Of a DNA stretch of 64,000 nt, positions 11,035 to 46,610 are shown piece by piece. The notes beneath the pieces are model-generated. The model did not search any database. It was not told where the DNA came from and worked only from the letters and a program-made list of their open reading frames with translations. Position 1 is the first letter of the stretch, and each line of letters opens with the position of its first letter. Location: NCBI GenBank assembly GCA_016844925.1, contig JAERTI010000036.1:79863-143862 (forward strand), read 5' to 3'. A program made the position numbers and the translations under genes. Origin of the DNA: Candidatus Uhrbacteria bacterium. Lineage in GTDB: Bacteria > Patescibacteriota > Patescibacteriia > UBA9934 > GWF2-40-263.

Positions 11035-11063
11035 TTGACAAAGTACCGTTTTCTTGGTAAGAA
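11035..11063 (+). promoter_or_regulatory. Sigma70-like promoter (ATTGACAAAG family): TTGACA, 17 nt spacer, TAAGAA
   Basis: Sequence match. First of four related elements that precede high-GC genes. Confidence 0.4.
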
Positions 11064-11213
11064 AAGGCCTTCTTTACGTGCGGCGCAAGCCAAACATGAG
11101 AAGGTCTTTCTGTTTCCGAGTAGTGAACACTGGGCCTTGGTCTGGTGTTTTCGACGCGGAACTTCCTAGTACCTGACAACTCAGATGCGGCAAGCCGCAC
11201 GGAGGAGATCGCA

Positions 11214-13382
11214 ATGGCCGTGGACATCAGCATGTTCAAGTCCCTGGTTCGAGAGACATTCGAATCCAAGGGCCGCGAGGGCGCCGAGAGGATGCTTCGC
11301 GAAGGAATCGCCGCCGGCGAGGACACCAGTGGGCTGATCAAGAAGCTCTCGGTGTGGATGCTCGACGAGAATGGCGAGTTCATGACCATGGTGCGAGCCA
11401 TCCCCGGCTCGTCCGAGGTTCCGCACCTGGCCACCATCGCGGTGGCGCACATCCTCGAGGATTCGAATCTGATCGATTCGCTCATCCCCGACAACAAGAC
11501 GCCCGCGGTGCGCGGCCTCAAGTTCGCGCTCAAGACCGGCCTGGCCGGCATGATCGCCGGCATTGGCGAGGGAACCTCTGGGTTCCTGCGCGGCAAGGTC
11601 GCCGGCGTGGTCGACGACCATGTCTCGGCTGAGCGCGTCGCTGTGGCGGACCGCAAGGGACGCCTCGACGAGCTGCTCATCATCTCCGACGAGCGCTTCG
11701 GCCTGCGCCGACCGCTCATCATGGCGCGCGACGCCAGTGGTGATGTGCTCGCCACCGACCGTGGTTACCCGCGGGTGGAAGACGGTGAGGGCATGGCCTT
11801 CATCTCCGCCTGGGAGCGTGCCAACCCCGAGGTCACCACGACCAAGAAGTCCGGTGGCAAGGGTGGGCAGACCACCAGCGAGACCAAGAAGCTGACGCCG
11901 CCCTGGCGTCGCGTCTGGCTCAGCGAATACCTCGCGTTGCTCAAGTCCTCTCCGGGGACGACCGTGGATCAGGCGCTCATCGAGCGTCTGGAGAAGCTGG
12001 TCACCCCCTCCAAGTCTTCGGACTGGGAGGAGGGGTACTCCATGGAGACCCTGAGGGTGCAGCGTGCCACCGCCGCGTCCGCTCCGGACATGCCGTCCAT
12101 CATGCGGGCGGAGATCGAGGAGATGTGGCGGTCCGTGCGCAAGCGCAAGCCGCCCATGAAGCTCCTCAACTTCCATGTCGGTGAGACCTTCCACGAGAAG
12201 ATCACCGCCGAGGGCAAGCTCTCGGTGGACGACATCCAGTCGATGATCGACACCATGGACATGCACCTGCGTGGAGATCAGGGGCTGTTCACTCAGGGCC
12301 GCAAGGCACTGGGTGTGGCCTCGGACTACCTGCGGACACTCGGGACGTCCGAAGACGAGCGCAAGATGATCCGGGCAGGACTGCTCGGCATCCTCTCGCC
12401 CGGACTCCTCTGGGCCATGGGAGCGGTGCTGACGGTGATGCTCCTGGTCACCGCCATCGCGATGAGCGGATCCCCGTTCATGTCGACCAGCTGGGCCATC
12501 GGCATGATCTGTTCGATGGTGGGTGGAGTTATCGGCTTCAACATCACCTGGCCCGTCCCCTTCGTGGAGATGGTGCTCACCCCCTTGTTCGGGGGCAAGA
12601 CCGAAGATGACTGGCTCAAGGACATCGGTCGTCAGGTGGCGGCGTTCGCGCTGGCCCTCGGCTGCGGCATCCTGCCGCTGCTCATCTACTTCGAGGCTCC
12701 GGCCTTCGTGGCAGCCCTGTTCGTCTCTGGTCTGGTGCTGGCGCCCATCGGGTACCTGTTCACCTACGCACGCCTGGGCGAGCACGAGCAGGCCAAGCAG
12801 CTGGTGCTGCGCAACCTGAAGAAGGCGACCTGGGTCCTCATGGGAGCCACGTTGGTGGTGACCGTCGCCGTGATCCTGATCAACGGCCTGCTGTCTCACT
12901 GGGTCAGCGGTCCCGAGCTCATCCAGCTCGCGGTGTTGCTCCTGACGGGAGTTGTCTCGGGCTTTGTCCTGGGGCTCCTCAAGTCCTGGATCTTCCAGCT
13001 GATCGTGCTGGCCCTCGTCATCGGCTTCGCCGCCTGGCGCTTCACCAAGGCCGAGCGCGTCTGGGACGGTGGTGGCTACAAGATCCACGAGATCCCCGTG
13101 TGGCGGCCGGTCCTGATCGGTCTGGCCATCGTCTCGCTGATCGGCATCGGCTACCAGCCGGTGAAGGCAGAGTGGAAGCAGACGATCGCGAGTCGCTCCA
13201 TGGAGAGCTTCCTCGCCTTCGTGCAGAGCTGGGACGATCCTGATCCGGCTCCGGCCACAACTCCCGCGTCCACCGCGGGAGGGCAGAGTACCTCCACACC
13301 CAGTGGTGTGGGGAAGCCGCCGACACAGGCGGAGTGCAACGCCATGCCGCCGATGTTCCGCAAGGACTTCGGCTGCAAGTAG
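11214..13382 (+). CDS. Uncharacterised large protein (about 720 aa) with an N-terminal soluble domain of about 390 aa, a C-terminal domain of 8-10 TM helices, and a Pro/Thr-rich tail ending in a Cys pair. GC-rich coding sequence.
   Basis: The ATG at 11214 is preceded by GGAGGAG. Sampled 60-nt windows have roughly 62-67% GC with strongly GC-ending codons. Multiple hydrophobic helices occur between about aa 395 and 700. The equally long antisense ORF (11181-13388) is Arg/Gly/His-rich and judged spurious. I recognise no family. Confidence 0.6.
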   Translation: MAVDISMFKSLVRETFESKGREGAERMLREGIAAGEDTSGLIKKLSVWMLDENGEFMTMVRAIPGSSEVPHLATIAVAHILEDSNLIDSLIPDNKTPAVRGLKFALKTGLAGMIAGIGEGTSGFLRGKVAGVVDDHVSAERVAVADRKGRLDELLIISDERFGLRRPLIMARDASGDVLATDRGYPRVEDGEGMAFISAWERANPEVTTTKKSGGKGGQTTSETKKLTPPWRRVWLSEYLALLKSSPGTTVDQALIERLEKLVTPSKSSDWEEGYSMETLRVQRATAASAPDMPSIMRAEIEEMWRSVRKRKPPMKLLNFHVGETFHEKITAEGKLSVDDIQSMIDTMDMHLRGDQGLFTQGRKALGVASDYLRTLGTSEDERKMIRAGLLGILSPGLLWAMGAVLTVMLLVTAIAMSGSPFMSTSWAIGMICSMVGGVIGFNITWPVPFVEMVLTPLFGGKTEDDWLKDIGRQVAAFALALGCGILPLLIYFEAPAFVAALFVSGLVLAPIGYLFTYARLGEHEQAKQLVLRNLKKATWVLMGATLVVTVAVILINGLLSHWVSGPELIQLAVLLLTGVVSGFVLGLLKSWIFQLIVLALVIGFAAWRFTKAERVWDGGGYKIHEIPVWRPVLIGLAIVSLIGIGYQPVKAEWKQTIASRSMESFLAFVQSWDDPDPAPATTPASTAGGQSTSTPSGVGKPPTQAECNAMPPMFRKDFGCK

Positions 13383-13473
13383 GTACACCTCTCGGTCGAG
13401 TCAACCTCGGCCAACGCAGGTCTGTTTGACCCCTAATTCATGGGGAAAAACGGACCTTTTTTGTTTAAAATCA

Positions 13474-13502
13474 TTGACAAAACCCCTATTTTCTGCTATT
13501 GT
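13474..13502 (+). promoter_or_regulatory. Sigma70-like promoter (ATTGACAAAA family): TTGACA, 17 nt spacer, TATTGT
   Basis: Sequence match, inside an AT-rich 290-nt spacer within the high-GC block. Confidence 0.45.
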
Positions 13503-13669
13503 GCCCCGTTCACGCAACATCTATTTGAGGGGTCAGATAAGGTATTGATGTGTCCAGAGAACGGTTGTTTTCTGGAATCCCCTCGACATCAATGCCTTTT
13601 CTGTTCCTTCAAGAAGAATCTCTCGATGAGCGAGATGGTTCGATCACAACCTGAGAAAGGAGGAGCCAG

Positions 13670-14263
13670 ATGCGTTGCTTCTGGATTCCGATCATCCTGG
13701 CGCTCGTGGTGTCAGGGTGTGCGACCGTCACCAGAACCGTCGATACCACCCCGGTGGATCTCGACGACGATGGTGAGGCCGAGACGACGCGCGAGAGCGT
13801 GACGGTGCAGTACCGAGGCAGCCTGCCGCCCCGACCCGTGGACATCATGGATGCGACGGACGAGACGGACAGCGAGGCCCTGGAGCTGGCCGGACAGGCG
13901 ATCGATCGCGGGATGGCGACCAGCGTCACCGTGACCGATGGCAGCGTGAGCGTGCAGGCAGGACAGGGCTACTACGGCACCTACTCCAGCGCGCCGGTGA
14001 TCTCCCCCTCGGGAGAGGTCTACGCCGCGCCCGATGTGGTGAGCACCCCCTACGGCTACCAGGCCACGGGAGGAGGCTCGCTGCCCCAGCTGCAGACCAC
14101 CACCGTGGTCCACGTGCCTTCCACCGGTGCGACCTCTCGCCCCGGCGGTGAGGTCACCTGCCCCGGTGAAGGTGAGCCCGCGCCCAAGCCCGGTACGCCC
14201 GAGCACGACGCCTGCATGGAGCAGGCGCTGCGCGCGATGGGCAAGCGCGTCTACGGACAGTAG
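13670..14263 (+). CDS. Uncharacterised lipoprotein (lipobox LVVSGC); GC-rich coding sequence
   Basis: RBS AAGGAGGAG. Signal peptide plus lipobox cysteine. Asp/Thr/Gly-rich mature part. GC-rich third codon positions. Confidence 0.6.
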   Translation: MRCFWIPIILALVVSGCATVTRTVDTTPVDLDDDGEAETTRESVTVQYRGSLPPRPVDIMDATDETDSEALELAGQAIDRGMATSVTVTDGSVSVQAGQGYYGTYSSAPVISPSGEVYAAPDVVSTPYGYQATGGGSLPQLQTTTVVHVPSTGATSRPGGEVTCPGEGEPAPKPGTPEHDACMEQALRAMGKRVYGQ

Positions 14264-14342
14264 GTCAGCGGGGGAATGAGCTCACGTTGACCACACGAAA
14301 TTTCTGTGTGGCCCAGCAGAGCTCGGCCCCCTGGAGGAAGAC

Positions 14343-15296
14343 ATGAAGAAGCAGACCCTGACCGCCCTGGTCCTGATCATGCTGGCGACCCTGCTGGCCG
14401 CGCCCCAGGCGCTGGCCGACAACGAGCTGGCGATCCTGCGCTACTGCACGGAGAAGTACCCCGAGAAGGGAGAGCCCTTCAACCAATGCATCATCAGCAA
14501 GCGTCTGGTGGTAGCTGAGTACGAGCGCGACCAGCTCGCGCAGCAGCTGGCTCAGGCTCAGGAGGAGCTCGCGACCCTCACGGCACAGCTCCAGAGCGGG
14601 CGTGAGATGGACGAGGAAGTGATCGCGGAGCTCAGCAGGCTCTCGGAGCTCGTCGGTGAGCTGCAGAGCCAGGTGGCGAGCTACGAGGAGGAGCGTGAGA
14701 GCGCCCCCGAGCAGCCCGTCCAGGCGGCCCCGCAGCCCCAGCAGACCGCTCCGGTTCACGCCGGCGGTGTGGTCACCGTGACCACGGGCGTGTCGTACCG
14801 ACAGGGACGTCGCCCCGCGCTGGTCTCGGTCTACCCGATCGACGCCGATCCGGAGGTGGTGAACATTTCGGCGCTGACCCACAAGAACACCTACTACAAG
14901 TGTGGAGGTGCTCCGGGTCGGCTGGTGATGGTGACCAACCACGGTCTGCCCATGGCGGTCACGGCCCCGGAAGGAATGCCCAGCGGATTCGTCGAGGTCT
15001 ACGTGGACCTCAACGGTGACGGGGTCTCCGACGGCAGCCGCAAGGTCATCGACCCGAGCGTCCACGGTGACATCAACATCACCTGGCACGAGGGCGACGA
15101 CATCCGCTTCACCTACCTGAAGAACAGTGGTGAGGTCCTGCTGGTTCCCGGCCTGCCCCCGCAGACTCTCTGGGAGATCCCCAGCTCGGGTGTGAAGGGT
15201 TGTGAGCTCGATGACCCGCGACGTGACCGCGAGCTGGTCCGGGCAGCCGACGAACAGAGCCTGAGGCTCTACGACGGCGTCTGGCCCGTCCGCTGA
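14343..15296 (+). CDS. Uncharacterised secreted protein with signal peptide, coiled-coil segment, Pro/Gln linker and C-terminal beta-rich domain; GC-rich coding sequence
   Basis: RBS GGAGGAAG. Signal peptide MKKQTLTALVLIMLATLLAAPQALA. Heptad-like EELATLTAQLQ... region. The antisense ORF 14265-15356 is Arg-rich and judged spurious. Confidence 0.6.
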   Translation: MKKQTLTALVLIMLATLLAAPQALADNELAILRYCTEKYPEKGEPFNQCIISKRLVVAEYERDQLAQQLAQAQEELATLTAQLQSGREMDEEVIAELSRLSELVGELQSQVASYEEERESAPEQPVQAAPQPQQTAPVHAGGVVTVTTGVSYRQGRRPALVSVYPIDADPEVVNISALTHKNTYYKCGGAPGRLVMVTNHGLPMAVTAPEGMPSGFVEVYVDLNGDGVSDGSRKVIDPSVHGDINITWHEGDDIRFTYLKNSGEVLLVPGLPPQTLWEIPSSGVKGCELDDPRRDRELVRAADEQSLRLYDGVWPVR

Positions 15297-15465: not shown

Positions 15466-15476
15466 CGAATGATTGT

Positions 15477-15860
15477 TTAAGCGGTTGCTGTGACCAAGGC
15501 GTCGATCACGAAGTCGGCGATGGCATAAGCGGCGATGATGATCACCAGACCAATGACAGCCTGTGAAAGAAGCTTCTTGGCTTTCTTGACCTTGTCCTCT
15601 TCTCCCTGGGAGGTGAGGTAAAGGAATCCTGCGTAGACAACCAGCACCACGAAGATGATACCGAGCACGGAGAGCAGGACGGCAATCAAGTTACCAATGA
15701 GTTCCGGGAGCTCGTTTGCTGTTGCCTCTGAACCGATACCCGTTCCAACGTCCTCGAGGCTGCTCTGCGCTTCAGAAAGCTGAGCGAAAGCGGCCGCAGG
15801 GAGAAGGAGGGCTGGCAGGGTTGAGAGCCAGGCGGCGAATTTGATGTAAGCGTTTTTCAT
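15477..15860 (-). CDS. VirB2/TrbC-like pilin-family small secreted membrane protein (paralog 1 of 5)
   Basis: Signal peptide, polar segment, then two hydrophobic helices separated by the charged loop TSQGEEDKVKKAKK. Start taken at the ATG at 15860; the track ORF starts at an upstream TTG. Confidence 0.45.
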   Translation of the reverse strand: MKNAYIKFAAWLSTLPALLLPAAAFAQLSEAQSSLEDVGTGIGSEATANELPELIGNLIAVLLSVLGIIFVVLVVYAGFLYLTSQGEEDKVKKAKKLLSQAVIGLVIIIAAYAIADFVIDALVTATA

Positions 15861-15895
15861 AAAGATAGTGAGACTAAGTTTCAATTGAGTTTAGA

Positions 15896-16297
15896 TTAGC
15901 CAAGGGCGGTCGTAAGAGCTTGGACGAGGTACGTGGTGACCGCATAGGCTGTGACCACGATTAGGATACCGATGACGGACGTAGTGAGCATGCTCTTCGC
16001 CTTCTTCACCTTACCTTCTTCGCCAGCTGCCGTCATGTAGAGCATTCCCGCGTAGACCATGATGACCAGGAAGATGATGCCGGTCAGGGCAAGCATGGCT
16101 GCGATCAGATTTCCGATAATGGTCGAGATGGACGAGGTGGAAAATAATCCTCCCCCAGTAGTTTCGATGCCACTTCGGATGGTTTCAGCAGCGTTATCAT
16201 CAGCTAGGGCTTCTGGCGCGATGAAGATCGCGAGTCCCAGCACTGCCACTACAGCCAAGCCCATAAGGCTCAGGTTGAGCGTTCGTTTCAATGTCAT
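15896..16297 (-). CDS. VirB2/TrbC-like pilin-family protein (paralog 2)
   Basis: Same architecture; conserved AGEEGKVKKAKS loop between two TM helices. Confidence 0.45.
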   Translation of the reverse strand: MTLKRTLNLSLMGLAVVAVLGLAIFIAPEALADDNAAETIRSGIETTGGGLFSTSSISTIIGNLIAAMLALTGIIFLVIMVYAGMLYMTAAGEEGKVKKAKSMLTTSVIGILIVVTAYAVTTYLVQALTTALG

Positions 16298-16395
16298 AGA
16301 GGTTTGTTCAACCGTCTGTTGTTCACACGAGCTCGCGAATACTCACGCGCTCATGCAAACCCCCATCGTTGGCTGGATGGGGATTGATCTAGATC

Positions 16396-16839
16396 TTACG
16401 ATGTTGCGGAGACAATTGAATCAATAACGAAGCTGGCAATGGCGTATGCCGAGAGGATAATCACCAGTCCGATAATACCGGAGAAGATGAGCTGCTTCGC
16501 GTTCTTCACTTTGTCCTCAGCACCAGCGGCTGTCATCCACTTGAATCCTCCAAGCAAGATGATTACCACAGCGATCACACCAAGGAATCCTAGAGCGATA
16601 CGGATAATAGCTGCGATGGTGTCAACCAGATCCGCTGATCCAAGACCAGTGGCTAGTTGAAAGTCTGAGTCTGATCCCGTGCTACCACCAAAGAGTTCAT
16701 CTGCGGTCAGTTGAGTGTCAGTGGATGCTGCTGTTGCGCCAACATCGCTGATACCTACAAGTGCAATGGCCCCAATTGAGAGGGCGAGGATAGCACCAAG
16801 GAAGAATCCGATGCGTTTTTTAGATAATGTGTTTGTCAT
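16396..16839 (-). CDS. VirB2/TrbC-like pilin-family protein (paralog 3)
   Basis: Same architecture (GGFKWMTAAGAEDKVKNAKQ). The ATG at 16839 is preceded by AAGGGGGTGA; the track ORF starts at an upstream GTG. Confidence 0.45.
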   Translation of the reverse strand: MTNTLSKKRIGFFLGAILALSIGAIALVGISDVGATAASTDTQLTADELFGGSTGSDSDFQLATGLGSADLVDTIAAIIRIALGFLGVIAVVIILLGGFKWMTAAGAEDKVKNAKQLIFSGIIGLVIILSAYAIASFVIDSIVSATS

Positions 16840-16971
16840 AGACGTCACCCCCTTTCCTAATGAAAAAGAATTAAGGCGTTTATTGAGTTAAAAATGTATT
16901 CGAAGTTATTCTACCGTTTTTAAGCCTCTCCAGGTAACTAAGATATCCACACGGCCTATTTTCAACTGCTC

Positions 16972-17331
16972 CTAGACGACGGTGCCCTCTGTAAGAATGG
17001 AGAGAACGGCACTGACCAGCACATACGCGAGCAGCATGACAGTGAGGCCAAGAACAGCCCATTTAATAGTCTCTTTCCCCTTCTTGATGCGATCTTGTTC
17101 ACCCGCAGAGAACAGCCACTGGAATCCACCCCAGACAAACATGAGCAGGGCAACGGATCCTGTGATACCGAAGATGCCCTGAATGAGTCTTCGGACAATC
17201 TCGTTGACTCCTACATGTCCCAATGGGTCGGTCAGTGTTGTGGCTGCTGCTGAAGCGAGCGATGGGGCACTCAAGAGGGCTAGACTAACGAGCCCATACC
17301 AGGAGCGTCGAATTGTTTGTGTGGTCATCAT
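16972..17331 (-). CDS. VirB2/TrbC-like pilin-family protein (paralog 4)
   Basis: Same architecture (GGFQWLFSAGEQDRIKKGKE). The start ATG overlaps the upstream stop in an ATGA arrangement. Confidence 0.45.
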   Translation of the reverse strand: MMTTQTIRRSWYGLVSLALLSAPSLASAAATTLTDPLGHVGVNEIVRRLIQGIFGITGSVALLMFVWGGFQWLFSAGEQDRIKKGKETIKWAVLGLTVMLLAYVLVSAVLSILTEGTVV

Positions 17332-18062
17332 AGAGATGTTCTGAAGTGAGTATAGCAGCATTGAATTCGTGGGGATCCTTCACAAGTTTCCGTACAGGGG
17401 CCTGAATAGTAGAAATAGGATTCTGATGAATAGGAACTTGGAACGCTTTCTGTATCGATACAGGTGTAGTAGTCGTAGGTACCAAGGACCTCATCGTATG
17501 TTCCTGATCCATCTGGATAGGTTTGTTCACACTCACTCAGGCAGAGGCCGTCTTCTGTACAGGTGCTGTGATCTCCGCAGGCCCATCCAACGGTTGCATC
17601 AGTACAAAATGACGTGAACTCTTCGGTCTCATCGCTGGTTCCGTAGATGGTGCCTGATGTAAGTACTTGTTTGAGTGTATAGATACCAGTCCAGGCAAAC
17701 AGGACGATGAGGAGGCCGACGGTGCTGATTTTGATGTACTTCTTTCCTTTTTTCACACGCTCTGGATCACCGGCAGAAACCAACATCCAGAATCCCCCGA
17801 TGACATACATAAGGAGAACGATTCCCCCGATGATGCTCAGAATGTAGTTCCCCACGTTGCTGAACACCTGCATGATGTCGGTCAATGTGCAGTCACCCGT
17901 ATTTCCGCAGGCGTTGGAGATGCCTTGCATGAATGGCCCTACCTCACCCTCGGTACATTTTCCTGTTGGGCCAGGCTTACAGATATTGGATGAGTAGGCC
18001 TGGGTGCTAGCCGGGGCGAGTGTGAGCGAGACAAGAATGAGTGCTAAGAGAATCCTCCTCAT
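17328..18062 (-). CDS. Cys-rich VirB2/TrbC-like protein (paralog 5) with extra N- and C-terminal cysteine-rich extracellular segments
   Basis: Signal peptide; N-terminal Cys-rich stretch (CKPGPTGKCTEGE...CGNTGDC); pilin-like core (GGFWMLVSAGDPERVKKGKK); C-terminal roughly 110 aa with about 14 Cys. Confidence 0.45.
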   Translation of the reverse strand: MRRILLALILVSLTLAPASTQAYSSNICKPGPTGKCTEGEVGPFMQGISNACGNTGDCTLTDIMQVFSNVGNYILSIIGGIVLLMYVIGGFWMLVSAGDPERVKKGKKYIKISTVGLLIVLFAWTGIYTLKQVLTSGTIYGTSDETEEFTSFCTDATVGWACGDHSTCTEDGLCLSECEQTYPDGSGTYDEVLGTYDYYTCIDTESVPSSYSSESYFYYSGPCTETCEGSPRIQCCYTHFRTSL

Positions 18063-20325: not shown

Positions 20326-20524
20326 AGATTTGCCCTTATTGTAGCGCACTGAAGAGTAAAGAAAAAACACTCCTGTGGAGTGTTTCGGTCGATTAGTCGC
20401 GGCTGAGATGGTAGAGCGTAACAAGAAGAAAGACGATCAGAATGACGACAGCGATGATTATGCGTGGATCAGTCAGCATATGAGATAGCGTAACACAAAA
20501 CACAGCAGGTCTTGCTGTGTTTTG

Positions 20525-20614
<90 letters not shown>

Positions 20615-29105: not shown

Positions 29106-29152
29106 ATGGGCCTGAGGGTAGCAGAGAATTGCTTAAGAGCCAAGGGATTGGA

Positions 29153-29181
29153 TTGACAAAAGTCTTATTTTTTGCATTCTT
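29153..29181 (+). promoter_or_regulatory. Sigma70-like promoter (ATTGACAAAAG family): TTGACA, 17 nt spacer, ATTCTT
   Basis: Sequence match, 25 nt upstream of the BI-1 start. Confidence 0.4.
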
Positions 29182-29205: not shown

Positions 29206-29898
29206 ATGGAGACGGCAATCTGGGAGGAATTCGATATGGGCATGTCCAAGAGTGTGTGGGGTCGCGATGGCGGAACTCACGCCATGAGTCAGAGGTTCTT
29301 CAACGTCATGCTGTGCTTCTGGACGGCTGTCGGCATCGCTTCGAGCGCCGTCGCCGCGAGTGTCAGTCTGACCTGGACCCTGGGATGGGGTCTGCTGCTG
29401 GGCACCTTCGCGATCGCCGTGATCGGCATCTTGATCGCGCTGCGCAGCGACGAGCCGATCATCAGCCTGCTCGGCTACGCCATGGTCACCATCCCCTTCG
29501 GGCTGATGCTCGGACCGCTGGTGGGAGCAACGGCAACCGCCGTGGTCATCAAGGCGTTCTTCATCACCACCGCGATGGTGGTGGTGCTCGGCGTGATGGG
29601 GGCCCTGATCCCCAAGAGCCTCGAGAGCTGGGCCCCGTACCTGTTCGGTGGGCTCTGCCTGCTCATCCTCGGCCTGCTGTTTGTTCCTCTCGCGGCCGCC
29701 TTCGGTCTGCCGGTGGAGGGAGCGCTGACCTGGATGGACTGGGCCGGCATCGTGCTGTTCGGCTTCTACGTCATCTTCGATCTCAACCGCGCCCAGCGCG
29801 TACAGCGGACGCACGACAACGCCATCGACTGCGCTCTGGCGGTCTACCTGGACTTCGTGAACATCTTCATCCGAGTCCTGGCACTGAGCGACGACTAG
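29206..29898 (+). CDS. Bax inhibitor-1/YccA-family (TMBIM) membrane protein; GC-rich coding sequence
   Basis: 230 aa, seven TM helices, C-terminal charged motif typical of BI-1/UPF0005. GC-rich third codon positions. The antisense ORFs 29077-29814 and 29172-30182 are judged spurious. Confidence 0.7.
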   Translation: METAIWEEFDMGMSKSVWGRDGGTHAMSQRFFNVMLCFWTAVGIASSAVAASVSLTWTLGWGLLLGTFAIAVIGILIALRSDEPIISLLGYAMVTIPFGLMLGPLVGATATAVVIKAFFITTAMVVVLGVMGALIPKSLESWAPYLFGGLCLLILGLLFVPLAAAFGLPVEGALTWMDWAGIVLFGFYVIFDLNRAQRVQRTHDNAIDCALAVYLDFVNIFIRVLALSDD

Positions 29899-31260: not shown

Positions 31261-31273
31261 TCGCTTCATGCAA

Positions 31274-31299
31274 ACACCCGGCTTGGCCGGGTGTTTTTG
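31274..31299 (+). terminator. Rho-independent terminator
   Basis: ACACCCGGC-ttgg-CCGGGTGT followed by TTTTTG. Confidence 0.8.
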
Positions 31300-32069: not shown

Positions 32070-34943
32070 CTAAGCCGCCGCACGCTCCCGTCGTCTTGGG
32101 AGTTTGCGCATGAGTGCTAGCGCAGCGAGCAGGGTGGCAACAACAAGAACAATGGTCATTCCCATGCGGGACTGCTGCTGATTAAGAAGGGCCTTGCCAT
32201 CTTGTGAAGTGCTAGCAAAGGCGACCGCCGCAGATTCTTCGATATGGATATCGGTCTCTGCTCGAGGGCGCAGACGTAGCTCTCCGTTGTAGCTCGTGAG
32301 AATGCCGGTAACCGTGAGTAGGTCTCCTCGTTCGAATTGGTTTGCATCGATAAGCGGATCGGATTTGAGGTAGATGGTCACGCGGTCCGGACCATCTTCA
32401 AGAACAAGCTTTGTTGAACTACGAGAGAGAATCTGTCCGCTTGTCTTGATGAGGAGACCTACAAGGGCCTCGTCGAACGCTTTGGCATCGTGCTGTGCTG
32501 GCATGGCTTGTGTGAGGTCACCTGTTGGGACGATATCTGTCGCATTGGTCACCTTCACACGCCGCTCTCCATAGGCGGTGCTCATGACACCTTCGATGCG
32601 TACTCGTGTATTCGTGTCGAGTTCTGGAAAGGTGGCGGCGTAGAAATATACTTGAACGCCGGCGCTCTCATCCTGGAGGTACATCACCTGGCGCCCGAAT
32701 GTTCCAGGGCTTGCGGTGACATAGCCTTCGACGCGTACACGTGTGTCATCAGGTTGAACTTTGGCCTGTTCAATGGAGAAGAAACTAACGTAGCTGGCTG
32801 CGGAAATGGATTGCGTGTTTGAGCTGGTGTTGGTCGTGGAAGAAGTTGTGCTGGAGCTCGTTGTCGTGCCTTGGGTCGATGCTACTTCTTTTGTTGTAAC
32901 AGCCTCATTTGTTTCGACGGCACTCTTCTTTGTTGAAGTATCTGTCGTCGACCAGCTCCAGTACGCGCCATCTCTATCGTATGTTCCCCCTCGAGGGGCA
33001 CTGCCATAGGTCACCATGTCGATCACATCGCCCTCTGGTGTAATCAGCTCCAGTGTGTCGCCGCTGTTGTTTAGAGAAAGATCGCTCTGCGGGCGATCCA
33101 CGCGGAGGGTGCTTCCTCCAGCAATCTTGAGAGAGCTGGAGAAGGTGTATCGGTCTGTAGAACCATCTTCGATGCTCCAGCCCTTGAGATCGATGCTCTC
33201 AAGGCCAGTGTTTGCAATTTCAATATATTCCTCCTGTGCGTCTGCTCCTGATGTGTTTGGGTAAAGCGAAGTGAATTCAAGGGTGACGGCGCCGGAGTAG
33301 GTAGTTTCATCTATTTCTGAGCCCTCTTGTTCTGGCGTAGATTCCTCATCTGAGGAATCTGGCGCCGTGTCTGTGTACTCTGTTGAGCTCGTGTAAGTCT
33401 CCTCTTCCTCGACAACCTCTTCTTGAGAAGTTTCCGCTTCATTTGCATCGATGGGCTCCTCGGGTTCGTCCTCCACGACTTCCGATTCTGTCTCAGCGCT
33501 CGTCTCACTTGCATCTGAGATGACATTTGGTCCGCCGGGCGTAGTGGTGTTGGTGAGAGTGAAGGAACCGCCGCTGTCACGCGCGAGACTGTCACCATCT
33601 TTTGGTGCGGGAAGATCTTCGCCCCCGTAGGTGATTGAGTCGATGACGGTTCTGGCTGCGTCGAGAAGTAAAATGGTGTCGGTATCGTTGTTGAGCTTTC
33701 CCCTCGGCCCCTCAACGACGATGTAGCTTCCGCTGGCAACAACGACAGGCTCAAGCTCGGTGGCTCGACCTGTGGCATCTTCAACCGTCCAGCCGGTGGT
33801 ATCGATGCTTTCGGTGGCGCGGTTCACAATCTCGATCCACTCTTCTCCCTCGTTTGGATCAACAACGAACTCGTTGATTTGCATAACACCAGGAGCGTAA
33901 GCGATGGTCGTGGTGGGTACATCTTCCTCGGGTTCGGAAGATGTCTCAGATGGTGTGTTCTCCTTTGAAGATTCATCTTGCAGATGCTCGTTTGATCCCT
34001 CGAGGGATTCAGTTTCATTTGCTTCTGCCTCCTCGGAAACCTCTTGAGGGTCGTTATTTTTCTCTGATGTTGTTTCTGGGTCAGTAACAGATTCCTCTTC
34101 GATAATTTCTTGTGTCTCCTCTATTTCGGCAGGCACAGAAGATGTTTCGCCAGAATTTTCAGTGTCCTCAGGAAGTGATTCTTCTGTATCTTGCGGAGTC
34201 TCTTCCGTTGCCTCTTGAGTTTCGTTGCCTGAAATTTCTTCTTCGAGCGCTTCTTCTGTTTCCCCCTCAAGGACCTCTTCCTCGTTTATTTCTTCAGATT
34301 CCTTTTCTGTCTCTGGAATAAACCATTCCTCGACGGCACCTGGTGTGCCCATGTCCTCAATATTCTGTTTAAAACCTGAGGCTGTCTGGGCATCGCTCCA
34401 AGCGGCTTCATCTGATCCGCTCAGCGTTTCATCGACTCGAGCCATGGATCGGTATCGTCCGTCATCAGTATCCGCAGCGCTGCCAGATCTTCCGGCGAAA
34501 GCTGATCCATCTCCTCCTGCCACATCGATGAGGGAACCGTCATGGTCATAGAGAGTTGCACGGAATCCGTCATTTGGCAGTGACAGGGTGGCGGTGATGA
34601 AGTTGGGTTCGACGCTGAGGGCCGAGTTGTCGTGGGAAGAATCATAGTTGGCGATAAGAAAGGTTGAGTAAGGTTCGATGACGGTGTCATCAGGCACGAC
34701 AAGGTCTTTCCCCGAACTGCCGGCTCCCGTGATAGTCCAGTTGGATAGATCGATGGGTGTGTCGGTCAGGTTTGTAAGCTCGATCCATTCATCAGAACTT
34801 GATTGACTCGAACCAGCCCAGGCAATCTCAGAAAAGATGACGGTGGGTGTTTGTGCGAAGGTCTTAATCGGTACAGCGACAAGCGATGCAAGAACGATCA
34901 TGGCAATCCACACTTTGTTGAATAGCAACATACGTTGGGTCAT
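32070..34943 (-). CDS. Large acidic surface-anchored protein (957 aa) with three lamin-tail-domain (LTD) repeats, an OB-fold-like domain and a C-terminal TM anchor
   Basis: Signal peptide. The LTD signature xEIAWAGS...DEWIELTN occurs three times. Long Glu/Ser/Thr-rich linkers. C-terminal hydrophobic helix plus RRRER. Confidence 0.6.
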   Translation of the reverse strand: MTQRMLLFNKVWIAMIVLASLVAVPIKTFAQTPTVIFSEIAWAGSSQSSSDEWIELTNLTDTPIDLSNWTITGAGSSGKDLVVPDDTVIEPYSTFLIANYDSSHDNSALSVEPNFITATLSLPNDGFRATLYDHDGSLIDVAGGDGSAFAGRSGSAADTDDGRYRSMARVDETLSGSDEAAWSDAQTASGFKQNIEDMGTPGAVEEWFIPETEKESEEINEEEVLEGETEEALEEEISGNETQEATEETPQDTEESLPEDTENSGETSSVPAEIEETQEIIEEESVTDPETTSEKNNDPQEVSEEAEANETESLEGSNEHLQDESSKENTPSETSSEPEEDVPTTTIAYAPGVMQINEFVVDPNEGEEWIEIVNRATESIDTTGWTVEDATGRATELEPVVVASGSYIVVEGPRGKLNNDTDTILLLDAARTVIDSITYGGEDLPAPKDGDSLARDSGGSFTLTNTTTPGGPNVISDASETSAETESEVVEDEPEEPIDANEAETSQEEVVEEEETYTSSTEYTDTAPDSSDEESTPEQEGSEIDETTYSGAVTLEFTSLYPNTSGADAQEEYIEIANTGLESIDLKGWSIEDGSTDRYTFSSSLKIAGGSTLRVDRPQSDLSLNNSGDTLELITPEGDVIDMVTYGSAPRGGTYDRDGAYWSWSTTDTSTKKSAVETNEAVTTKEVASTQGTTTSSSTTSSTTNTSSNTQSISAASYVSFFSIEQAKVQPDDTRVRVEGYVTASPGTFGRQVMYLQDESAGVQVYFYAATFPELDTNTRVRIEGVMSTAYGERRVKVTNATDIVPTGDLTQAMPAQHDAKAFDEALVGLLIKTSGQILSRSSTKLVLEDGPDRVTIYLKSDPLIDANQFERGDLLTVTGILTSYNGELRLRPRAETDIHIEESAAVAFASTSQDGKALLNQQQSRMGMTIVLVVATLLAALALMRKLPRRRERAAA

Positions 34944-35778: not shown

Positions 35779-35857
35779 ATCAATCTTTTTCGAAGTAACT
35801 AAGCGCCACGATCATACTCGACAAAAGCCGTCTCATCAAGTATCGTCGCGTTAACTT

Positions 35858-37074: not shown

Positions 37075-37091
37075 ACGCCCGAAAGGGCGTT

Positions 37092-37634: not shown

Positions 37635-37663
37635 TTGACAGGTATTCAGGTCTCGACTACACT
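37635..37663 (+). promoter_or_regulatory. Candidate rRNA promoter: TTGACA, 17 nt spacer, TACACT
   Basis: Consensus -35 about 290 nt upstream of the mature 23S 5' end. Confidence 0.4.
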
Positions 37664-37929: not shown

Positions 37930-41055
<3,126 letters not shown>

Positions 41056-41133
41056 ACCACTTCTGCGTTTGATTGAGTCTGATCAAACCAGTTTCTCTTC
41101 TACAATAAAACAACGAAAGAAAGAATCTTTTGT

Positions 41134-42744: not shown

Positions 42745-43088
42745 CGATCATTCCCCGAGCCGTGTAACACACCGCGTTCTTTACGTGAAGCTAGTTTTTC
42801 GATGTTTGCCTGAGCAATGTCATTAAGATTTAACTTCATTTCACTCGCTACACAGGCAACATACCAGAGGACATCACCAAGTTCTTTTTGAACTTCCTTC
42901 TGGAATGTCTCATCAACAACTCCATCGTTATCTCGCATTATTTTTTTGACCGTATTGGCGACTTCACCAGCTTCTCCAGCCAAGCCCAGAGCAGCGTAAT
43001 AGGGGTTGTTTCCTACGTTGGGGTACAATGCAGTGGTTGCTGCTTTTTCTTGATAGTCAGATAGATTCATAGGTCCAAAGTTTAGCAT
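42741..43088 (-). CDS. MazG-family nucleoside triphosphate pyrophosphohydrolase
   Basis: EAGEVANTVKK and ELGDVLWYV motifs of MazG/NTP-PPase. Confidence 0.7.
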   Translation of the reverse strand: MLNFGPMNLSDYQEKAATTALYPNVGNNPYYAALGLAGEAGEVANTVKKIMRDNDGVVDETFQKEVQKELGDVLWYVACVASEMKLNLNDIAQANIEKLASRKERGVLHGSGNDR

Positions 43089-43090
43089 AT

Positions 43091-44347
43091 ATGCGTTACA
43101 TCGTTGATTGGCACATTCACTCTAAATATTCACGCGCGTGCAGTAAGCAACTTGAACTTCCTGTTATTGATGAGTGGTGCGCGCGTAAGGGGATCGATAT
43201 CGTTGCCACAGGTGACTGGACACATCCAGAATGGTTCGCTCACATCAAAGAACATCTTGAAGAAAAGAGGCAGGGGATTTATCAGCTCAAGGGCGGTGGG
43301 AAGCGTGAGTTCATGCTCGTGCAGGAGTTCAGTCAGATTTATAAGAAGGGAGATAAGACACGTCGCGTACACAATCTTGTCTTTTCTCCATCGATTGAAA
43401 CGTGTGAGAAAGTTATCGCTGAACTGACTCGTAGGAATTTCAATCTCAAGGCGGATGGTCGTCCAATTCTTGGAATCGATTCTGAAGATTTGTATAAGCT
43501 CCTGAAAGAAATTGATGAAAAGATTATTATCATCCCTGCTCATGCTTGGACACCCTGGTACGCGATCTTCGGAAGCAAATCTGGATTCGATTCGATTGAA
43601 GAATGCTTCGGAGAGATGAGCCAGTATATTTACGCTATCGAGACAGGGCTTTCGTCTGATCCTTTGATGAACTGGCAACTATCTGGACTCGATGATGTGG
43701 TGTTGATTTCAAATTCCGATGCGCACTCCCCTCGAAACCTTGGGCGTGAGGCAAACGTGTTTGAGTTTGATGAGCCGCCAACATACGATGAGTTTGTGCG
43801 TGTACTGCGTGAAAAAGATCGGGAACGTTTTAAGTACACCATCGAGTTTTACCCTCAAGAGGGCAAGTATCATTTTGACGGTTGTTCTGGTTGTAAATTT
43901 TCCTGTGATCCCAAAGAGTCGAAACGTCATGGCGAGCGCTGTCCAACGTGTCACAAACCGCTCACCCTTGGAGTACATCATCGGGTAGAGGAGCTCTCTG
44001 ATCGTGATGCGCATACAGTTGCAAACAGAAAAATTCCATTCAAATCAATTGTGCCATTGGCGGAGATCATTGCAGAGGTTGTAGGTGTGAAGTCGACTCA
44101 GTCAAAAAAGGTGCTTGCCGAATATTTCAGGCTAACCGACGAACTTGCTGACGAGTTCACGCTCCTGCTCGATACTCCACTACAAGCTATTCAAGCTGCC
44201 TCCGCCTATCCAAACCTTGCCGAAGCTATTTCACGTATGCGAAAAGGTGAGATGAATATCCAGCCGGGTTATGATGGGATCTACGGCACGGTAAAGATTT
44301 TCGGCGAGAAAGGTCCACCAGCACCAAAGCAATCTAGCCTACTCTAA
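43091..44347 (+). CDS. PHP-domain nuclease of the endonuclease Q (EndoQ/TIGR00375) family with a C-terminal zinc ribbon
   Basis: N-terminal DWHIHSKYSRACS (PHP His cluster), IPAHAWTPWYAIFGS, SNSDAHSP, Zn ribbon CSGC...CPTCH, and IVPLAEIIAEV. Length 418 aa matches archaeal EndoQ. Confidence 0.55.
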   Translation: MRYIVDWHIHSKYSRACSKQLELPVIDEWCARKGIDIVATGDWTHPEWFAHIKEHLEEKRQGIYQLKGGGKREFMLVQEFSQIYKKGDKTRRVHNLVFSPSIETCEKVIAELTRRNFNLKADGRPILGIDSEDLYKLLKEIDEKIIIIPAHAWTPWYAIFGSKSGFDSIEECFGEMSQYIYAIETGLSSDPLMNWQLSGLDDVVLISNSDAHSPRNLGREANVFEFDEPPTYDEFVRVLREKDRERFKYTIEFYPQEGKYHFDGCSGCKFSCDPKESKRHGERCPTCHKPLTLGVHHRVEELSDRDAHTVANRKIPFKSIVPLAEIIAEVVGVKSTQSKKVLAEYFRLTDELADEFTLLLDTPLQAIQAASAYPNLAEAISRMRKGEMNIQPGYDGIYGTVKIFGEKGPPAPKQSSLL

Positions 44348-44351
44348 TCAA

Positions 44352-44385
44352 AAACACTCTCAGCGCGTCACTGAGAGTGTTTTTA
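44352..44385. terminator. Bidirectional rho-independent terminator
   Basis: ACACTCTCAG-cgcgtca-CTGAGAGTGT flanked by A- and T-runs. Confidence 0.8.
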
Positions 44386-44394
44386 TATTTGCAC

Positions 44395-44838
44395 TTAGCG
44401 CTTGCGGCGCTTTGGAGCTGCCTTGCGTTTTGCAGGCTTTCGCTTCTTAGCGACGGTTTTCTTGCGCTTTGGAGCTGCCTTTTTCTTGGCAGGCTTCCTC
44501 TTAGCTGGCTTACGCTTTGCAGCTTTCTTTTTCGCTGGTTTACGCTTAGCCGGTTTCTTCTTGGCCGGCTTGCGCTTAGCAGCTGCTTTACGCTTTGCAG
44601 GCTTCTTTTTCGCTGGCTTACGCTTTGCAGCAGCCTTCTTCTTAGGTGCTGCTTTACGCTTCGCTGGCTTCTTCTTAGCAACCTTTTTCTTGGCTGCTGG
44701 TTTGCGCTTTGGAGCTGCCTTCTTTTTTGCTGGCTTACGCTTTGCTGCTGCTTTCTTCTTAGGAGCTGCCTTGCGCTTTGCAGGCTTCTTCTTTGCAGCA
44801 GGTTTACGCTTTGCCGGCTTCTTCTTTTTTGCTGGCAT
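44395..44838 (-). CDS. Lys/Ala/Pro-rich histone H1-like (Hc1/AlgP-type) basic protein
   Basis: The ATG is preceded by AGGAGGTGAT. 147 aa, almost entirely KKPAKRKAAPKKKAAA-type repeats. All other-frame ORFs here are repeat artefacts. Confidence 0.7.
   Translation of the reverse strand: MPAKKKKPAKRKPAAKKKPAKRKAAPKKKAAAKRKPAKKKAAPKRKPAAKKKVAKKKPAKRKAAPKKKAAAKRKPAKKKPAKRKAAAKRKPAKKKPAKRKPAKKKAAKRKPAKRKPAKKKAAPKRKKTVAKKRKPAKRKAAPKRRKR
44400..44835. repeat. Imperfect tandem DNA repeats encoding the KAP-repeat protein
   Basis: Reiterated gcttacgctttgcaggcttcttctt-like units across about 430 nt. Confidence 0.7.
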
Positions 44839-45059
44839 AGTTCCGAATCACCTCCTCTGTGCCACCGACATGTCGATGACCAAGTCAGAACCATTGGTTC
44901 CTCCGAGGATAGATTAATTAAATAACTTGCTCGATCGAGCTCTGCACGTAAACGTGCAGAAGAGTTTCGTGTGTTACATGACGCGCTGCAACAAACGATG
45001 ATTACATTGTAAAAAAATATTCTCGTTGCAACAAGAATATTTTCACAAATTTTTTTCTC

Positions 45060-46370
45060 TTACGATTGTTTTTCGTGCACCTGAACTTCTATTCCTTCCT
45101 CTGACCATTCGTAAACCCACATCATGTCTTCAAGAGAAACGTTCACACAGCCATGCGACATCTTGTGTCCGAAGTTGTTGTGCCACGGTGCGTAGTGAAT
45201 ATAGATGTGCGGATAGAAGCGGATGTTGTATGGAATCCAGCCAAGGTCATAATTTCTTGCATCACCTTCTCCGTAATTCCAGGCGTAATGCACAACTGGA
45301 ACTTTGGCTAAAATTACATGATTTCCAAGGGGTGTTGCATTGTTTAGCCCACTTGAAATAAGGAAGCTGTTGTCGAGGATGCCACCGTCGGATGCATAGA
45401 GACGTTGTTCTAACGTGTCTACTTCGATGCGTTTGTTTTCTTCTGGAACAAAGATGAGTCGTCCTGATGTAATAAGAAGTTGTTCTTCGTCCGAGGCAAC
45501 AGTGACACTCCCATGAACAGAAAAAAAAGTTTCTGACGTTTCGTCATTGGTGTAAACCAAACTGTTCGTTGCTGTGGATAAAATTATTTCTTCCGCGTGT
45601 GCAACAAGGGAAGTTATACCAAGTGCATCAACAAAACGTGTTTGTTCGTTTGTTGTCGTGACACTGTTTGAAAAAGAAAATGTTTTTATTGTAGGTTCGT
45701 TGGTGTGTTGTTGCGCAACGATAAGCTCTCCGTTGTGCACGTCTCCAACAAGACCAGAGCGGTCGCTCGCGTGAAAGGCAAAAAAGTTTTCTGCGAGTCG
45801 TGCTTGGCCATCCCATGACCACACGCGCACATGCGGACCGCCACTGGCAGCGGGAAGAGTGACAAGTTCATCGCGGGTATCATCGATGAGATCGCCACAG
45901 GCAAGATTGATTCCTCCACGGAACGATTCGTCGTAAGCAAAGAAACCTCCATCGTCGATTGATTCACCGTAGCGGTCAAAGATACGTACATGGGGACCAC
46001 CGCCTCTTGCTGGTGCTACAACAATTTCATTATAGCCATCACCAGTTAGGTCACACGCAGCGACGTTCACACCCACGCCCAGTGAAGGGGCGTAAGCGAG
46101 AAAGCTCCCAACCTCGCTACCATCTTGTCGCAGAACGCGTACTCGAGGCTCAGAACCTAATCCACTTCCAATGATGATTTCAGAAACACCATCATCTCCG
46201 AGGTCAGCAAAAGCGATGGAAGCGCCACCCACTGTATCGCCTACAGAGAGTTCGAAATCAATCGAATGGTCCGTGGATTGCACGCGGATGGATTCCTGGT
46301 GAGAGGCTTGTGCCGGAGCCTGTGACAAGAGTAGCCCTAGTGGAACAATCAAGAGAAGCAAGTGTTTCAT
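45060..46370 (-). CDS. Secreted protein with FG-GAP/VCBS-type repeats fused to a C-terminal L,D-transpeptidase (YkuD) catalytic domain
   Basis: Signal peptide; repeated GDLxxDGxxEIVV/GGGPHVR units; C-terminal HGCVNVS active-site motif. Confidence 0.65.
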   Translation of the reverse strand: MKHLLLLIVPLGLLLSQAPAQASHQESIRVQSTDHSIDFELSVGDTVGGASIAFADLGDDGVSEIIIGSGLGSEPRVRVLRQDGSEVGSFLAYAPSLGVGVNVAACDLTGDGYNEIVVAPARGGGPHVRIFDRYGESIDDGGFFAYDESFRGGINLACGDLIDDTRDELVTLPAASGGPHVRVWSWDGQARLAENFFAFHASDRSGLVGDVHNGELIVAQQHTNEPTIKTFSFSNSVTTTNEQTRFVDALGITSLVAHAEEIILSTATNSLVYTNDETSETFFSVHGSVTVASDEEQLLITSGRLIFVPEENKRIEVDTLEQRLYASDGGILDNSFLISSGLNNATPLGNHVILAKVPVVHYAWNYGEGDARNYDLGWIPYNIRFYPHIYIHYAPWHNNFGHKMSHGCVNVSLEDMMWVYEWSEEGIEVQVHEKQS

Positions 46371-46401
46371 ACGGACTTATGATAACAAAAAACCACCCCT
46401 A

Positions 46402-46477
46402 ATGGTGGACCTGGAGGGACTCGAACCCTCGACCCCCTGCTTGCAAAGCAGGTGCTCTAGCCAACTGAGCTACAGGC
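46402..46477 (-). tRNA. tRNA-Ala (TGC), G3-U70 identity pair, 3' CCA encoded
   Basis: GGGCCTGTAGCTCAGTTGGCTAGAGCACCTGCTTTGCAAGCAGG...; T-arm GAGGGTTCGAGTCCCTC. Confidence 0.85.
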
Positions 46478-46581
46478 CCCTCATTGGGGGTGGTTTTGTT
46501 TTGCGGCAGAATAATAACAATCCTTGGAAAATGTGTCAATGAATTTATCCCCCATATCAGGGTCCTTTTGGGGCTTAATCA

Positions 46582-46610
46582 TTGACAAAAGCCGTTTTTT
46601 AGCGTATCTT
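46582..46610 (+). promoter_or_regulatory. Sigma70-like promoter (ATTGACAAAAG family): TTGACA, 17 nt spacer, TATCTT
   Basis: Sequence match, 47 nt upstream of the start. Confidence 0.45.

Follow-up and report, generated by a model that had tools for sequence, protein, structure and literature searches.

A conserved sigma-70-type promoter class upstream of GC3-rich genes in a Candidatus Uhrbacteria genome

The spacer between the -35 and -10 hexamers of bacterial core promoters has been reported to comprise four regions, namely an AT-tract adjacent to the -35, a slightly GC-enriched part, another AT-tract and finally a stretch rich in G that takes in TG; in that study spacer composition altered promoter strength up to 600-fold, most strongly with non-consensus hexamers, and a YRY start element lay 7–8 nt after the -10 (Kuo et al. 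2025, Nucleic Acids Research, PMC12641261). Sigma-70 senses the spacer near -18 (PMC3130263), and in Bacillus subtilis a spacer T-tract sets the selectivity of extracytoplasmic function (ECF) sigma factors, probably by DNA bending (Gaballa et al. 2018, PMC5758882). The present analysis concerns a stretch of 64,000 nt (the window) of contig JAERTI010000036.1 from a Candidatus Uhrbacteria bacterium, a member of the Candidate Phyla Radiation (CPR), in which an element of about 30 bp built on TTGACA stands before genes with a high GC content at third codon positions (GC3). The shared element of this genome is a genuine promoter class of the sigma-70 type, conserved in evolution.

The class shows the tract order of the four-region spacer and carries Y-G-T 6–7 nt after the -10; here, however, the pattern is no weak statistical tendency but is nearly invariant in one gene class and absent outside it, and that study (PMC12641261) does not appear to cover any CPR genome. 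Gram-positive-type sigma-A extended -10 promoters share TTGACA, the 17-bp spacer, T-12/A-11/T-7 and, with three of the four core sites, TG at -15/-14, but the class differs from them in a -10 far from TATAAT (TAnnTT, with T at -8) and in its conserved A- and T-tracts. Similarly, a homopolymeric spacer T-tract marks a promoter subclass among the Bacillus ECF promoters (PMC5758882), which have AAC and CGT-type elements and a -35-proximal tract, while here the elements are TTGACA and TAnnnT and the T-tract is -10-proximal. An ECF sigma promoter (GAAC-type -35, CGTC-type -10) was ruled out on these elements.

Sites, anatomy and specificity of the element

The 9-mer ATTGACAAA has four exact matches on the two strands of the window, at 11034, 13473, 29152 and 46581, all on the + strand, where 0.77 are expected by chance, and none of 100 dinucleotide-preserving shuffles reached four. 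All four sites are intergenic and oriented toward a gene, 53–196 nt before its start codon, and the genes downstream have a GC3 of 0.82–0.87 compared with about 0.52 for the backbone. The four elements are thus where the original prediction had placed them, upstream of GC-rich genes; its coordinates give the first T of TTGACA, and ATTGACAAA begins 1 nt before them. Two further sites belong to the class.

11034–11063, + strand: promoter W1, before the gene for the 722-aa membrane protein, A-TTGACA-AAGTACCGTTTTCTTGG-TAAGAA with an extended -10 (TGg)
13473–13502, + strand: promoter W2, before the genes for the 197-aa lipoprotein and the 317-aa secreted protein, A-TTGACA-AAACCCCTATTTTCTGC-TATTGT with TGc
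29152–29181, + strand: promoter W3, before the gene of the Bax-inhibitor-1 family, A-TTGACA-AAAGTCTTATTTTTTG-CATTCT(T), with tRNA-Leu in divergent orientation
46581–46610, + strand: promoter W4, before the gene for the 482-aa lipoprotein, A-TTGACA-AAAGCCGTTTTTTAGCG-TATCTT, with tRNA-Ala in divergent orientation
55948–55976, - strand: fifth member, TTGACAGACGGGTGGTTTTTTGCTAGGTT, read as TTGACA-GACGGGTGGTTTTTTGC-TAGGTT, upstream of the 293-aa gene (GC3 0.82)
1316 nt left of the window: sixth member, ATTGACAAACGGGTGGTTTTTTGTTATCTT, before an 81-aa gene (GC3 0.80)

The -35 hexamer is TTGACA (6/6) at all four core sites and at both additional ones; as for the run of A said to follow it, W1 reads ATTGACAAAG, with three A. 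The proposed 17-nt spacer ending in GC or GG stands for W1 and W2, while W4 ends in CG and W3 is better read with a 16-nt spacer and CATTCT than with the 17-nt spacer of TTGACA-AAAGTCTTATTTTTTGC-ATTCTT at 29153; the GC or GG ending at W1 to W3 is the TGn of an extended -10, TG lying at -15/-14 in W1 (TGg), W2 (TGc) and W3 (TGc, if the -10 is ATTCTT) and not in W4 (GCG). A spacer of 17 ± 1 bp together with a -10 that keeps A-11 and T-7 is found in full at W2 (TATTGT) and W4 (TATCTT), two of the hexamers proposed earlier, and at W3 only with the 16-bp spacer and CATTCT; W1, with TAAGAA, is without T-7, yet it has TGn, and so has its ortholog (TGnTAAAAA). The TC noted before two of the sites is present and carries no signal across relatives.

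In the logo of 27 sites, TTGACA is invariant and is followed by A-29/A-28 in 24/27 and A-27 in 19/27; C or G is favoured over -25 to -23 (at -24 in 23/27, at -25 in 21/27), T occupies -19 to -17 in 25/27 and -20 in 22/27, and G is enriched at -14/-13 (G-14 in 14/27), so that the spacers of this set run in the order AT-tract, GC-enriched part, AT-tract and G-rich end. The -10 has T-12/A-11 in 26/27, T-7 in 25/27 and T rather than A at -8 in 16/27, and a conserved (Y)GTTC lies 6–7 nt downstream of it, at about +1.

A position matrix of 33 columns, trained on 21 sites from other genomes only, was used to scan 81.65 kb of this genome on both strands (7.65 kb of left flank, the 64-kb window and 9.7 kb of right flank, with Logan sub-contigs for the flanks). 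The six highest scores were those of W2 (13474, 34.7 bits), W4 (46582, 32.0 bits), the site at -1316 (28.3 bits), W3 (29153, 24.4 bits), the site at 55976 on the - strand (17.7 bits) and W1 (11035, 16.0 bits), and the next best hit reached 11.9 bits. In 20 shuffles the best score had a mean of 12.6 and a largest value of 18.2; four class sites (24–35 bits) stand far above this, and the fifth and sixth lie within the shuffle range. All six top sites precede GC3-rich genes, in agreement with the earlier view that the element is specific to GC-rich genes, here over about 80 kb; in the roughly 80 kb scanned it does not stand before many ordinary genes.

Other good promoters of the window serve as comparators.

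4285–4313, + strand: backbone promoter, TTGACA-GAGAGGGTTCAATATGC-TATCCT (gagagggttcaatatgc as spacer in a second listing)
23949: promoter, TTGACC-ctgctcctaaaaaatgc-TATTAT
37635–37663, + strand: candidate 23S rRNA promoter, TTGACA-GGTATTCAGGTCTCGAC-TACACT (ggtattcaggtctcgac as spacer in a second listing)
46511–46539, - strand: tRNA-Ala promoter, TTGACA-CATTTTCCAAGGATTGT-TATTAT (cattttccaaggattgt as spacer in a second listing)

All four are without the A-tract/T-tract signature, and the matrix scores of the tRNA-Ala, 23S and 4285 promoters (10.3, 9.1 and 8.5 bits) are in the noise. Backbone promoters of this genome often carry the TGn extended -10 as well, and generic sigma-70-like matches are no more frequent in the window than in shuffled sequence. 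At 35811–35846, overlapping divergent promoters, TCGACAAAAGCCGTCTCATCAAGTATCGT (+, hydrolase gene) and TTGATGAGACGGCTTTTGTCGAGTATGAT (-, tRNA-Leu), occupy one stretch, whose + strand 12-mer GACAAAAGCCGT is the same 12-mer as in W4.

Over 40 loci, the genes downstream of TTGACA-N17-TAnnnT sites have a median GC3 excess of +0.17 with the signature compared with +0.01 without it (Mann–Whitney p=0.004), several low values in the signature-positive group being open reading frame (ORF) picking errors by the script. The converse fails, since GC3-rich genes with other promoters exist, such as the Bax-inhibitor orthologs elsewhere and the 242-aa family, whose promoter is a variant.

50968–50996, + strand: variant promoter of the 242-aa gene (GC3 0.72), TTGACT-TTTTGACCAAAATAGAC-TAGTTT

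This variant overlaps a divergent - strand promoter (TGGTCA...TACAAT) and is kept as TTGACTTTTnnnCCAAA in L009, L010 and L014.

Conservation of the promoters and inheritance of the genes

Orthologous promoters are preserved although the proteins are merely 37–48% identical. The W1 ortholog in the related locus L025 keeps TTGACA-N17-TGaTAAAAA, and the W2 ortholog there (197-aa family) reads TTGACAAAAACGCCATTTTCTGCTATTAT; W3 orthologs elsewhere read TTGAC[AT]-N16/17-(TGc)TATCTT or TATAAT; the W4 element is conserved upstream of 482-aa orthologs in at least 14 Uhrbacteria genomes, with versions such as TTGACAAAACCGCCGGTTTCCTGTATCTT, TTGACAAAATCCCTATTTTCGCGTATCTT, TTGACAAAAAGGCAATTTTTAGCTAAGAT and TTGACAAAATTGTCATTTTCCTTTATGAT, the last from a genome of 40% GC; and the ortholog of the 55976 (-) site in L007 (293-aa family) reads TTGACAAATGGCCGGTTTTTTGATACGGT. 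This sigma-70-type anatomy at orthologous positions bears out the description of the elements as promoter-like. The comparisons show purifying selection on the elements of W1, W2, W4 and 55976 (-), and the W3 family keeps TTGAC[AT]-N16/17 plus a -10. Outside the window, the element is also found with the families of a 245-aa 'MEAMIEL' protein (GC3 0.84) and of a 136-aa protein. In other CPR lineages the same families have TTGACTTTT or consensus TGcTATAAT promoters without the A-tract, yet are GC3-rich, as in the Bax-inhibitor orthologs.

The conservation extends into the leaders.

46617–46643, + strand: predicted 5' end of the W4 transcript, with the conserved GUUCUG and then a 5'-proximal hairpin (-10.6 kcal/mol)

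In the 482-aa family every leader starts with GUUCUG, and a hairpin follows 2 nt later in all 11 orthologous leaders, with stems that differ (GUGCA/UGCAC, GAGGA/UCCUC, GGGC/GCCC, AGGCA/UGCCU; -3 to -11 kcal/mol), as judged from single-sequence folds and, for covariation, by eye rather than statistically; RNAalifold found almost nothing in these leaders because MAFFT mis-aligned the variable stems. The shared GUUCUG and the hairpin at a constant place mark where the transcripts of this family probably begin. A hairpin of this type resembles the 5'-terminal stabilisers of other bacteria. The leader of the 722-aa gene (11071–11213, about 140 nt) is conserved with L025 far better than the protein (48% identity); it folds strongly (-53.7 kcal/mol), matches no known RNA family in Rfam at E≤1 and may be a structured regulatory leader. 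A small upstream ORF at 13548 was dropped, since its frame runs on without a stop as far as the 197-aa gene and L025 does not conserve the peptide.

The GC3-rich genes are as follows.

11214–13382, + strand: 722-aa polytopic membrane protein gene, GC3 0.87, no known family
13670–14263, + strand: 197-aa lipoprotein gene, GC3 0.85, paired with the next gene over 13670–15296
14343–15296, + strand: 317-aa secreted protein gene, GC3 0.86
29206–29898, + strand: Bax1-I/US12 family membrane protein gene, GC3 0.87 (PF01027, 3e-24)
46657–48105, + strand: 482-aa lipoprotein gene, GC3 0.82, Uhrbacteria/Parcubacteria only
51131–51859, + strand: 242-aa gene, GC3 0.72, function not assigned
55042–55923, - strand: 293-aa gene, GC3 0.82, function not assigned
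L002 6023–6268; L026 915–1196, 1310–1486 and 2234–2590: rich-class genes outside the window

The products are mostly envelope proteins (the 722-aa membrane protein, lipoproteins or secreted proteins, the Bax-inhibitor-1 family protein), and two proteins of the class are apparently cytoplasmic. Searches of the GC3-rich proteins against Pfam, NCBIfam and PHROGs gave only Bax1-I and one marginal match, of the 317-aa protein to phrog_777 (E=0.0047). The annotated Bax-inhibitor start at 29206 lacks a Shine–Dalgarno sequence, orthologs align from residue 11–14, and the ATG at 29236 is preceded by GGGAGG; the true start is probably this ATG, which would leave a leader of about 47 nt beginning with a CCGC-AGAA-GCGG hairpin. 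Homologs of the 482-aa lipoprotein come solely from Candidatus Uhrbacteria and Parcubacteria genomes assembled from metagenomes. Its AlphaFold model (mean predicted local distance difference test score, pLDDT, 85.5) has lytic transglycosylases (MltD, MltE, MltC, Slt70) as its top 23 PDB matches, with probabilities of 0.72–1.00 (≥0.96 in 19/23), weak E-values near 0.01 and template modelling scores (TM-scores) of about 0.2–0.45, while a profile of the family gave nothing significant against PDB sequences; the predicted structure is therefore suggestive of a lytic-transglycosylase-like protein.

By codon use the genes of this genome form two groups that a small gap separates: about 12 genes out of roughly 85 lie at GC3 0.72–0.87, the rest at about 0.52. 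In a per-codon log-likelihood score the weakest gene of the rich class reaches 0.14, one small gene to the right of the window 0.00, and the backbone starts at -0.08. The rich class uses AAA in 0 of 85 cases, TTT in 6%, ATT in 7%, CAA in 5% and CCA in 4%, with 5% A-ending codons; C-ending NNY codons are strongly preferred, GGT (25%) and CGT (21%) are retained, and amino-acid composition stays near the backbone, so that the shift is synonymous and codon-specific. The preference for C-ending NNY codons and the retention of GGT and CGT are also features of translational selection, and the ribosomal protein gene here leans the same way: rpmH (L34), the sole ribosomal protein gene reached in this genome, uses AAG 8 times and AAA once and is at the top of the backbone group. 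The class differs from translational selection in the size of the shift (GC3 +0.3 to +0.4, AAA absent), which exceeds that of this one ribosomal protein gene, and in that the rich genes here encode lineage-specific envelope or unknown proteins and not translation machinery. As for further translation genes, L070 (EF-Tu, S10 operon) is from a distant organism and shows little codon contrast, and L076 (IF3, L35, L20) is uniformly GC-rich. The GC enrichment ends at ORF boundaries and is confined to codons; the intergenic flanks of the rich genes have a GC of 0.44–0.51 in 8/10 cases, the others being 0.57 and 0.61 around the 317-aa gene.

The GC3-rich genes were shown to be long-resident and vertically inherited, not insertions. 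The 482-aa gene is divergent from tRNA-Ala in 17 species-level genomes, and the 722/197/317-aa trio stands between a nifS-nifU-ferredoxin-reductase operon and five genes for type IV secretion system (T4SS) pilins in an order found in three further assemblies, both in an 87%-identical and in a 48%-identical relative. The GC3 of the 482-aa orthologs is above the locus median in 17/17 (for example, 0.84 compared with 0.46, and 0.41 with 0.30), that of the trio in L025 is 0.73–0.80 over a backbone of 0.34–0.43, and the Bax-inhibitor orthologs are elevated on about 20 further CPR contigs (0.97 against 0.57, 0.68 against 0.31). The offset is similar although host backbone GC3 spans 0.23 to 0.77, and the GC3-rich families are elevated in all other CPR genomes examined, irrespective of background GC. 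Directly downstream of the trio, 15477–18062 (-) holds the five tandem T4SS_pilin/TrbC-VirB2 genes and then a solute-binding protein gene; this gene order is conserved in three relatives, and the codon scores of two of the five pilin genes are close to the highest of the backbone, while those of the other three are mid-range.

Readings of the shared signature

The preferred reading, to which a probability of roughly 0.58 is assigned, is that the six sites are functional core promoters of the sigma-70/sigma-A type that form a distinct, conserved 'optimised' class for probably highly expressed genes. RNA polymerase with the housekeeping sigma factor would use these sites by way of a perfect -35 TTGACA and a 17-bp spacer (16 bp at one site) made up of an A-tract (-29 to -27), a G/C-rich core (-25 to -23), a T-tract (-20 to -17) and a G-rich end, often TGn; the -10 would retain only T-12, A-11 and T-7 (TAnnTT type), and a Y-G-T start motif would lie 6–7 nt downstream of it. 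The spacer tracts may raise promoter strength via DNA shape, such compensation being plausible with -10 hexamers as weak as TAnnTT, and high expression would account for the codon bias. The presumed targets are vertically inherited Uhrbacteria/CPR genes, mostly for envelope proteins, with good Shine–Dalgarno sites, and for the 482-aa gene at least, the conserved 5'-terminal stabilising hairpin would be a further hallmark of strong expression. Shine–Dalgarno sites, 5' hairpins and codon bias together suggest a class built for high or robust expression.

Several points weigh against this reading. The rRNA and tRNA promoters, which should rank as the strongest, do not have the A/T-tract signature and favour A at -8 where the class favours T, so that a different sigma factor or regulator would fit too. 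The spacer rule of Kuo et al. has mainly T beside the -35, whereas the class has A3–4. L34 is far less codon-biased than the rich class, and a purely expression-driven bias therefore needs the class to be 'more expressed than ribosomal proteins'. No TTGACA promoter is recognisable before four small genes of high GC3 that lie right of the window; many of the 27 sites in the logo are orthologs and not independent events; about 8% of the roughly 1-Mb genome is covered; and the start sites and expression levels of the class are inferred from sequence.

In a rival reading, an alternative sigma-70-family factor, or a spacer-bound regulator that senses DNA shape, would recognise the extended signature, and the GC3-rich genes would form a single co-regulated programme such as a cell-envelope or host-attachment apparatus. 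Such a dedicated regulon is possible, though clearly less probable than housekeeping use. It draws on the absence of the signature from rRNA, tRNA and backbone promoters despite their TTGACA-N17, on the T at -8 in 16/27 class sites where stable-RNA promoters mostly have A, on spacer positions conserved across orthologs at 37–48% protein identity, on the tuning of sigma selectivity by a T-tract in Bacillus ECF promoters (PMC5758882), and on the several envelope products and the three genes beside five T4SS-pilin genes. However, the -35 is the housekeeping consensus, the same families elsewhere are GC3-rich under TTGACTTTT or TGcTATAAT promoters without an A-tract, no candidate factor was identified, and the conserved positions are homopolymer tracts with no consistent palindrome across sites: the sites share no dyad-symmetric or base-specific motif separable from the RNA polymerase elements. 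An operator palindrome was rejected, as only W1 has one (ACTTTGTCA-N8-TGACAAAGT), over the end of the upstream ORF and weaker in L025.

The original prediction had spoken of 'insertions' and of a common capture context, that is, of horizontally acquired cassettes that landed behind, or brought, a common promoter. The sharp GC contrast with the neighbours, the two sites adjoining tRNA genes and the want of a known family for most of the proteins would fit this, and GC unlike the neighbours and tRNA adjacency are indeed shared with tRNA-adjacent genomic islands and integron-like cassettes; but the class differs from these in its lineage-wide synteny (tRNA-Ala adjacency in 17 genomes, nifSU-trio-pilin order in three further assemblies), in a GC3 offset that stays similar over backbones of 0.23–0.77, and in a shift confined to codons, with flanks mostly at 0.44–0.51 and amino-acid composition near the backbone. 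No integrase, direct repeats, empty sites or shared flanks were found at the sites, and there are no phage-family matches save the marginal phrog_777. When the six sites of this genome were aligned with 60-bp flanks, identity was confined to the core of about 30 bp without flank homology, so the sites are not copies of a mobile sequence, and a mobile or duplicated element was ruled out on this alignment. Acquisition of the genes as insertions is highly improbable. Chance resemblance among AT-rich intergenic regions can hardly be credited at all: generic sigma-70-like matches are no commoner than in shuffles, as it would predict, but four exact 9-mers against 0.77 expected and never reached in 100 shuffles, matrix scores of 24–35 bits against a shuffle maximum of 18.2, and conservation at orthologous positions all speak otherwise.

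The remaining explanation takes the T-run and the complementary flanks for intrinsic terminators that belong to the genes upstream, with TTGACA incidental; it starts from hairpins that overlap the promoters, one of them the following.

11019–11044, + strand: inverted repeat of 9–10 bp, ACTTTGTCA-N8-TGACAAAGT, then ACCGTTTTCT, found by a terminator scan

This repeat is terminator-like for the upstream nifSU/Pyr_redox operon and holds the W1 -35 in its 3' arm. A GC-rich hairpin followed by a T-run is found at W1 (weak, 3 GC pairs), at 55976 (-), whose -35 is in the terminator hairpin loop of the Wzy_C gene upstream, and at the sixth site, left of the window; at all three the -35 lies in the hairpin loop or 3' arm and the T-tract doubles as a U-tract. 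A terminator-only origin is nonetheless very unlikely, since no stable hairpin surrounds the -35 of W2, W3 or W4, no gene upstream of W3 or W4 runs in the same direction, each of these two sites being divergent from a tRNA gene and retaining the T-tract without any hairpin, and the T-tract lies at a fixed distance from the -10 and not from any stem. The overlap at three sites is better read as a compaction feature of a compact genome than as the cause of the motif.

Two composite sites, 55948–55990 (-) and L002 6305–6350 (-), are near-identical, each with a hairpin CCAYCYG...ACGGGTGG plus T6 whose loop bears the -35 of the next gene, so that the U-tract doubles as the T-tract of the promoter spacer. 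A separate family of terminator hairpins occurs at 20364–20386, 31272–31296, 48164–48188, 51956–51979 and 53912–53933; its members start with AAACA(C/G) and end with (G/C)TGTTT, with stem ends alike, differing centres and T-run flanks, and most, being flanked by T-runs on both sides, are probably bidirectional terminators.

Genome context and meaning for the lineage

The window begins 7.65 kb from dnaA-dnaN and holds 23S–5S rRNA without 16S as well as scattered tRNA genes; independent assemblies in Logan, ENA and JGI data give this same arrangement, so a chimeric contig is not the explanation. The 23S rRNA gene (37935–41057) has 3123 nt compared with a model of 2925 positions, about 200 nt extra, and the 23S–5S pair stands alone, with no 16S gene linked upstream. 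At 32070–34943 (-), a 957-aa protein with three lamin-tail domains and an OB-fold/DUF5689 region is encoded, which is probably a secreted nuclease-like or DNA-binding surface protein.

A full-text literature search found no study of CPR/Patescibacteria promoters or of heterogeneity of codon use (GC3) within their genomes, and the association of a promoter class with ancient codon-recoded CPR genes is, as far as was found, undescribed. CPR organisms are uncultured or barely cultured, and here a promoter class defined by sequence coincides with sharply bimodal codon usage. The class gives a practical means of predicting which genes of CPR genomes are highly expressed or co-regulated, together with a shortlist of unknown envelope proteins likely relevant to lifestyle; it also offers a natural test case for the newly proposed spacer grammar of bacterial promoters, and it warns that GC-rich 'islands' in CPR genomes need not be horizontal transfer or binning error.

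A bolder and rather doubtful extension is two-tier expression in Uhrbacteria/CPR, in which a lineage-specific gene set would have its own promoters read by a sigma factor or regulator, conserved 5' leaders and almost complete recoding toward G/C-ending codons. The set would comprise envelope proteins, the lytic-transglycosylase-like lipoprotein, the Bax-inhibitor-family protein and the genes beside the T4SS pilins, and the extent of recoding (AAA-free, GC3 up to 0.97 on a background of 0.5) is cited for it. If true, these features together would amount to a hard-wired programme that might serve host attachment, say, or survival as stable mRNAs.

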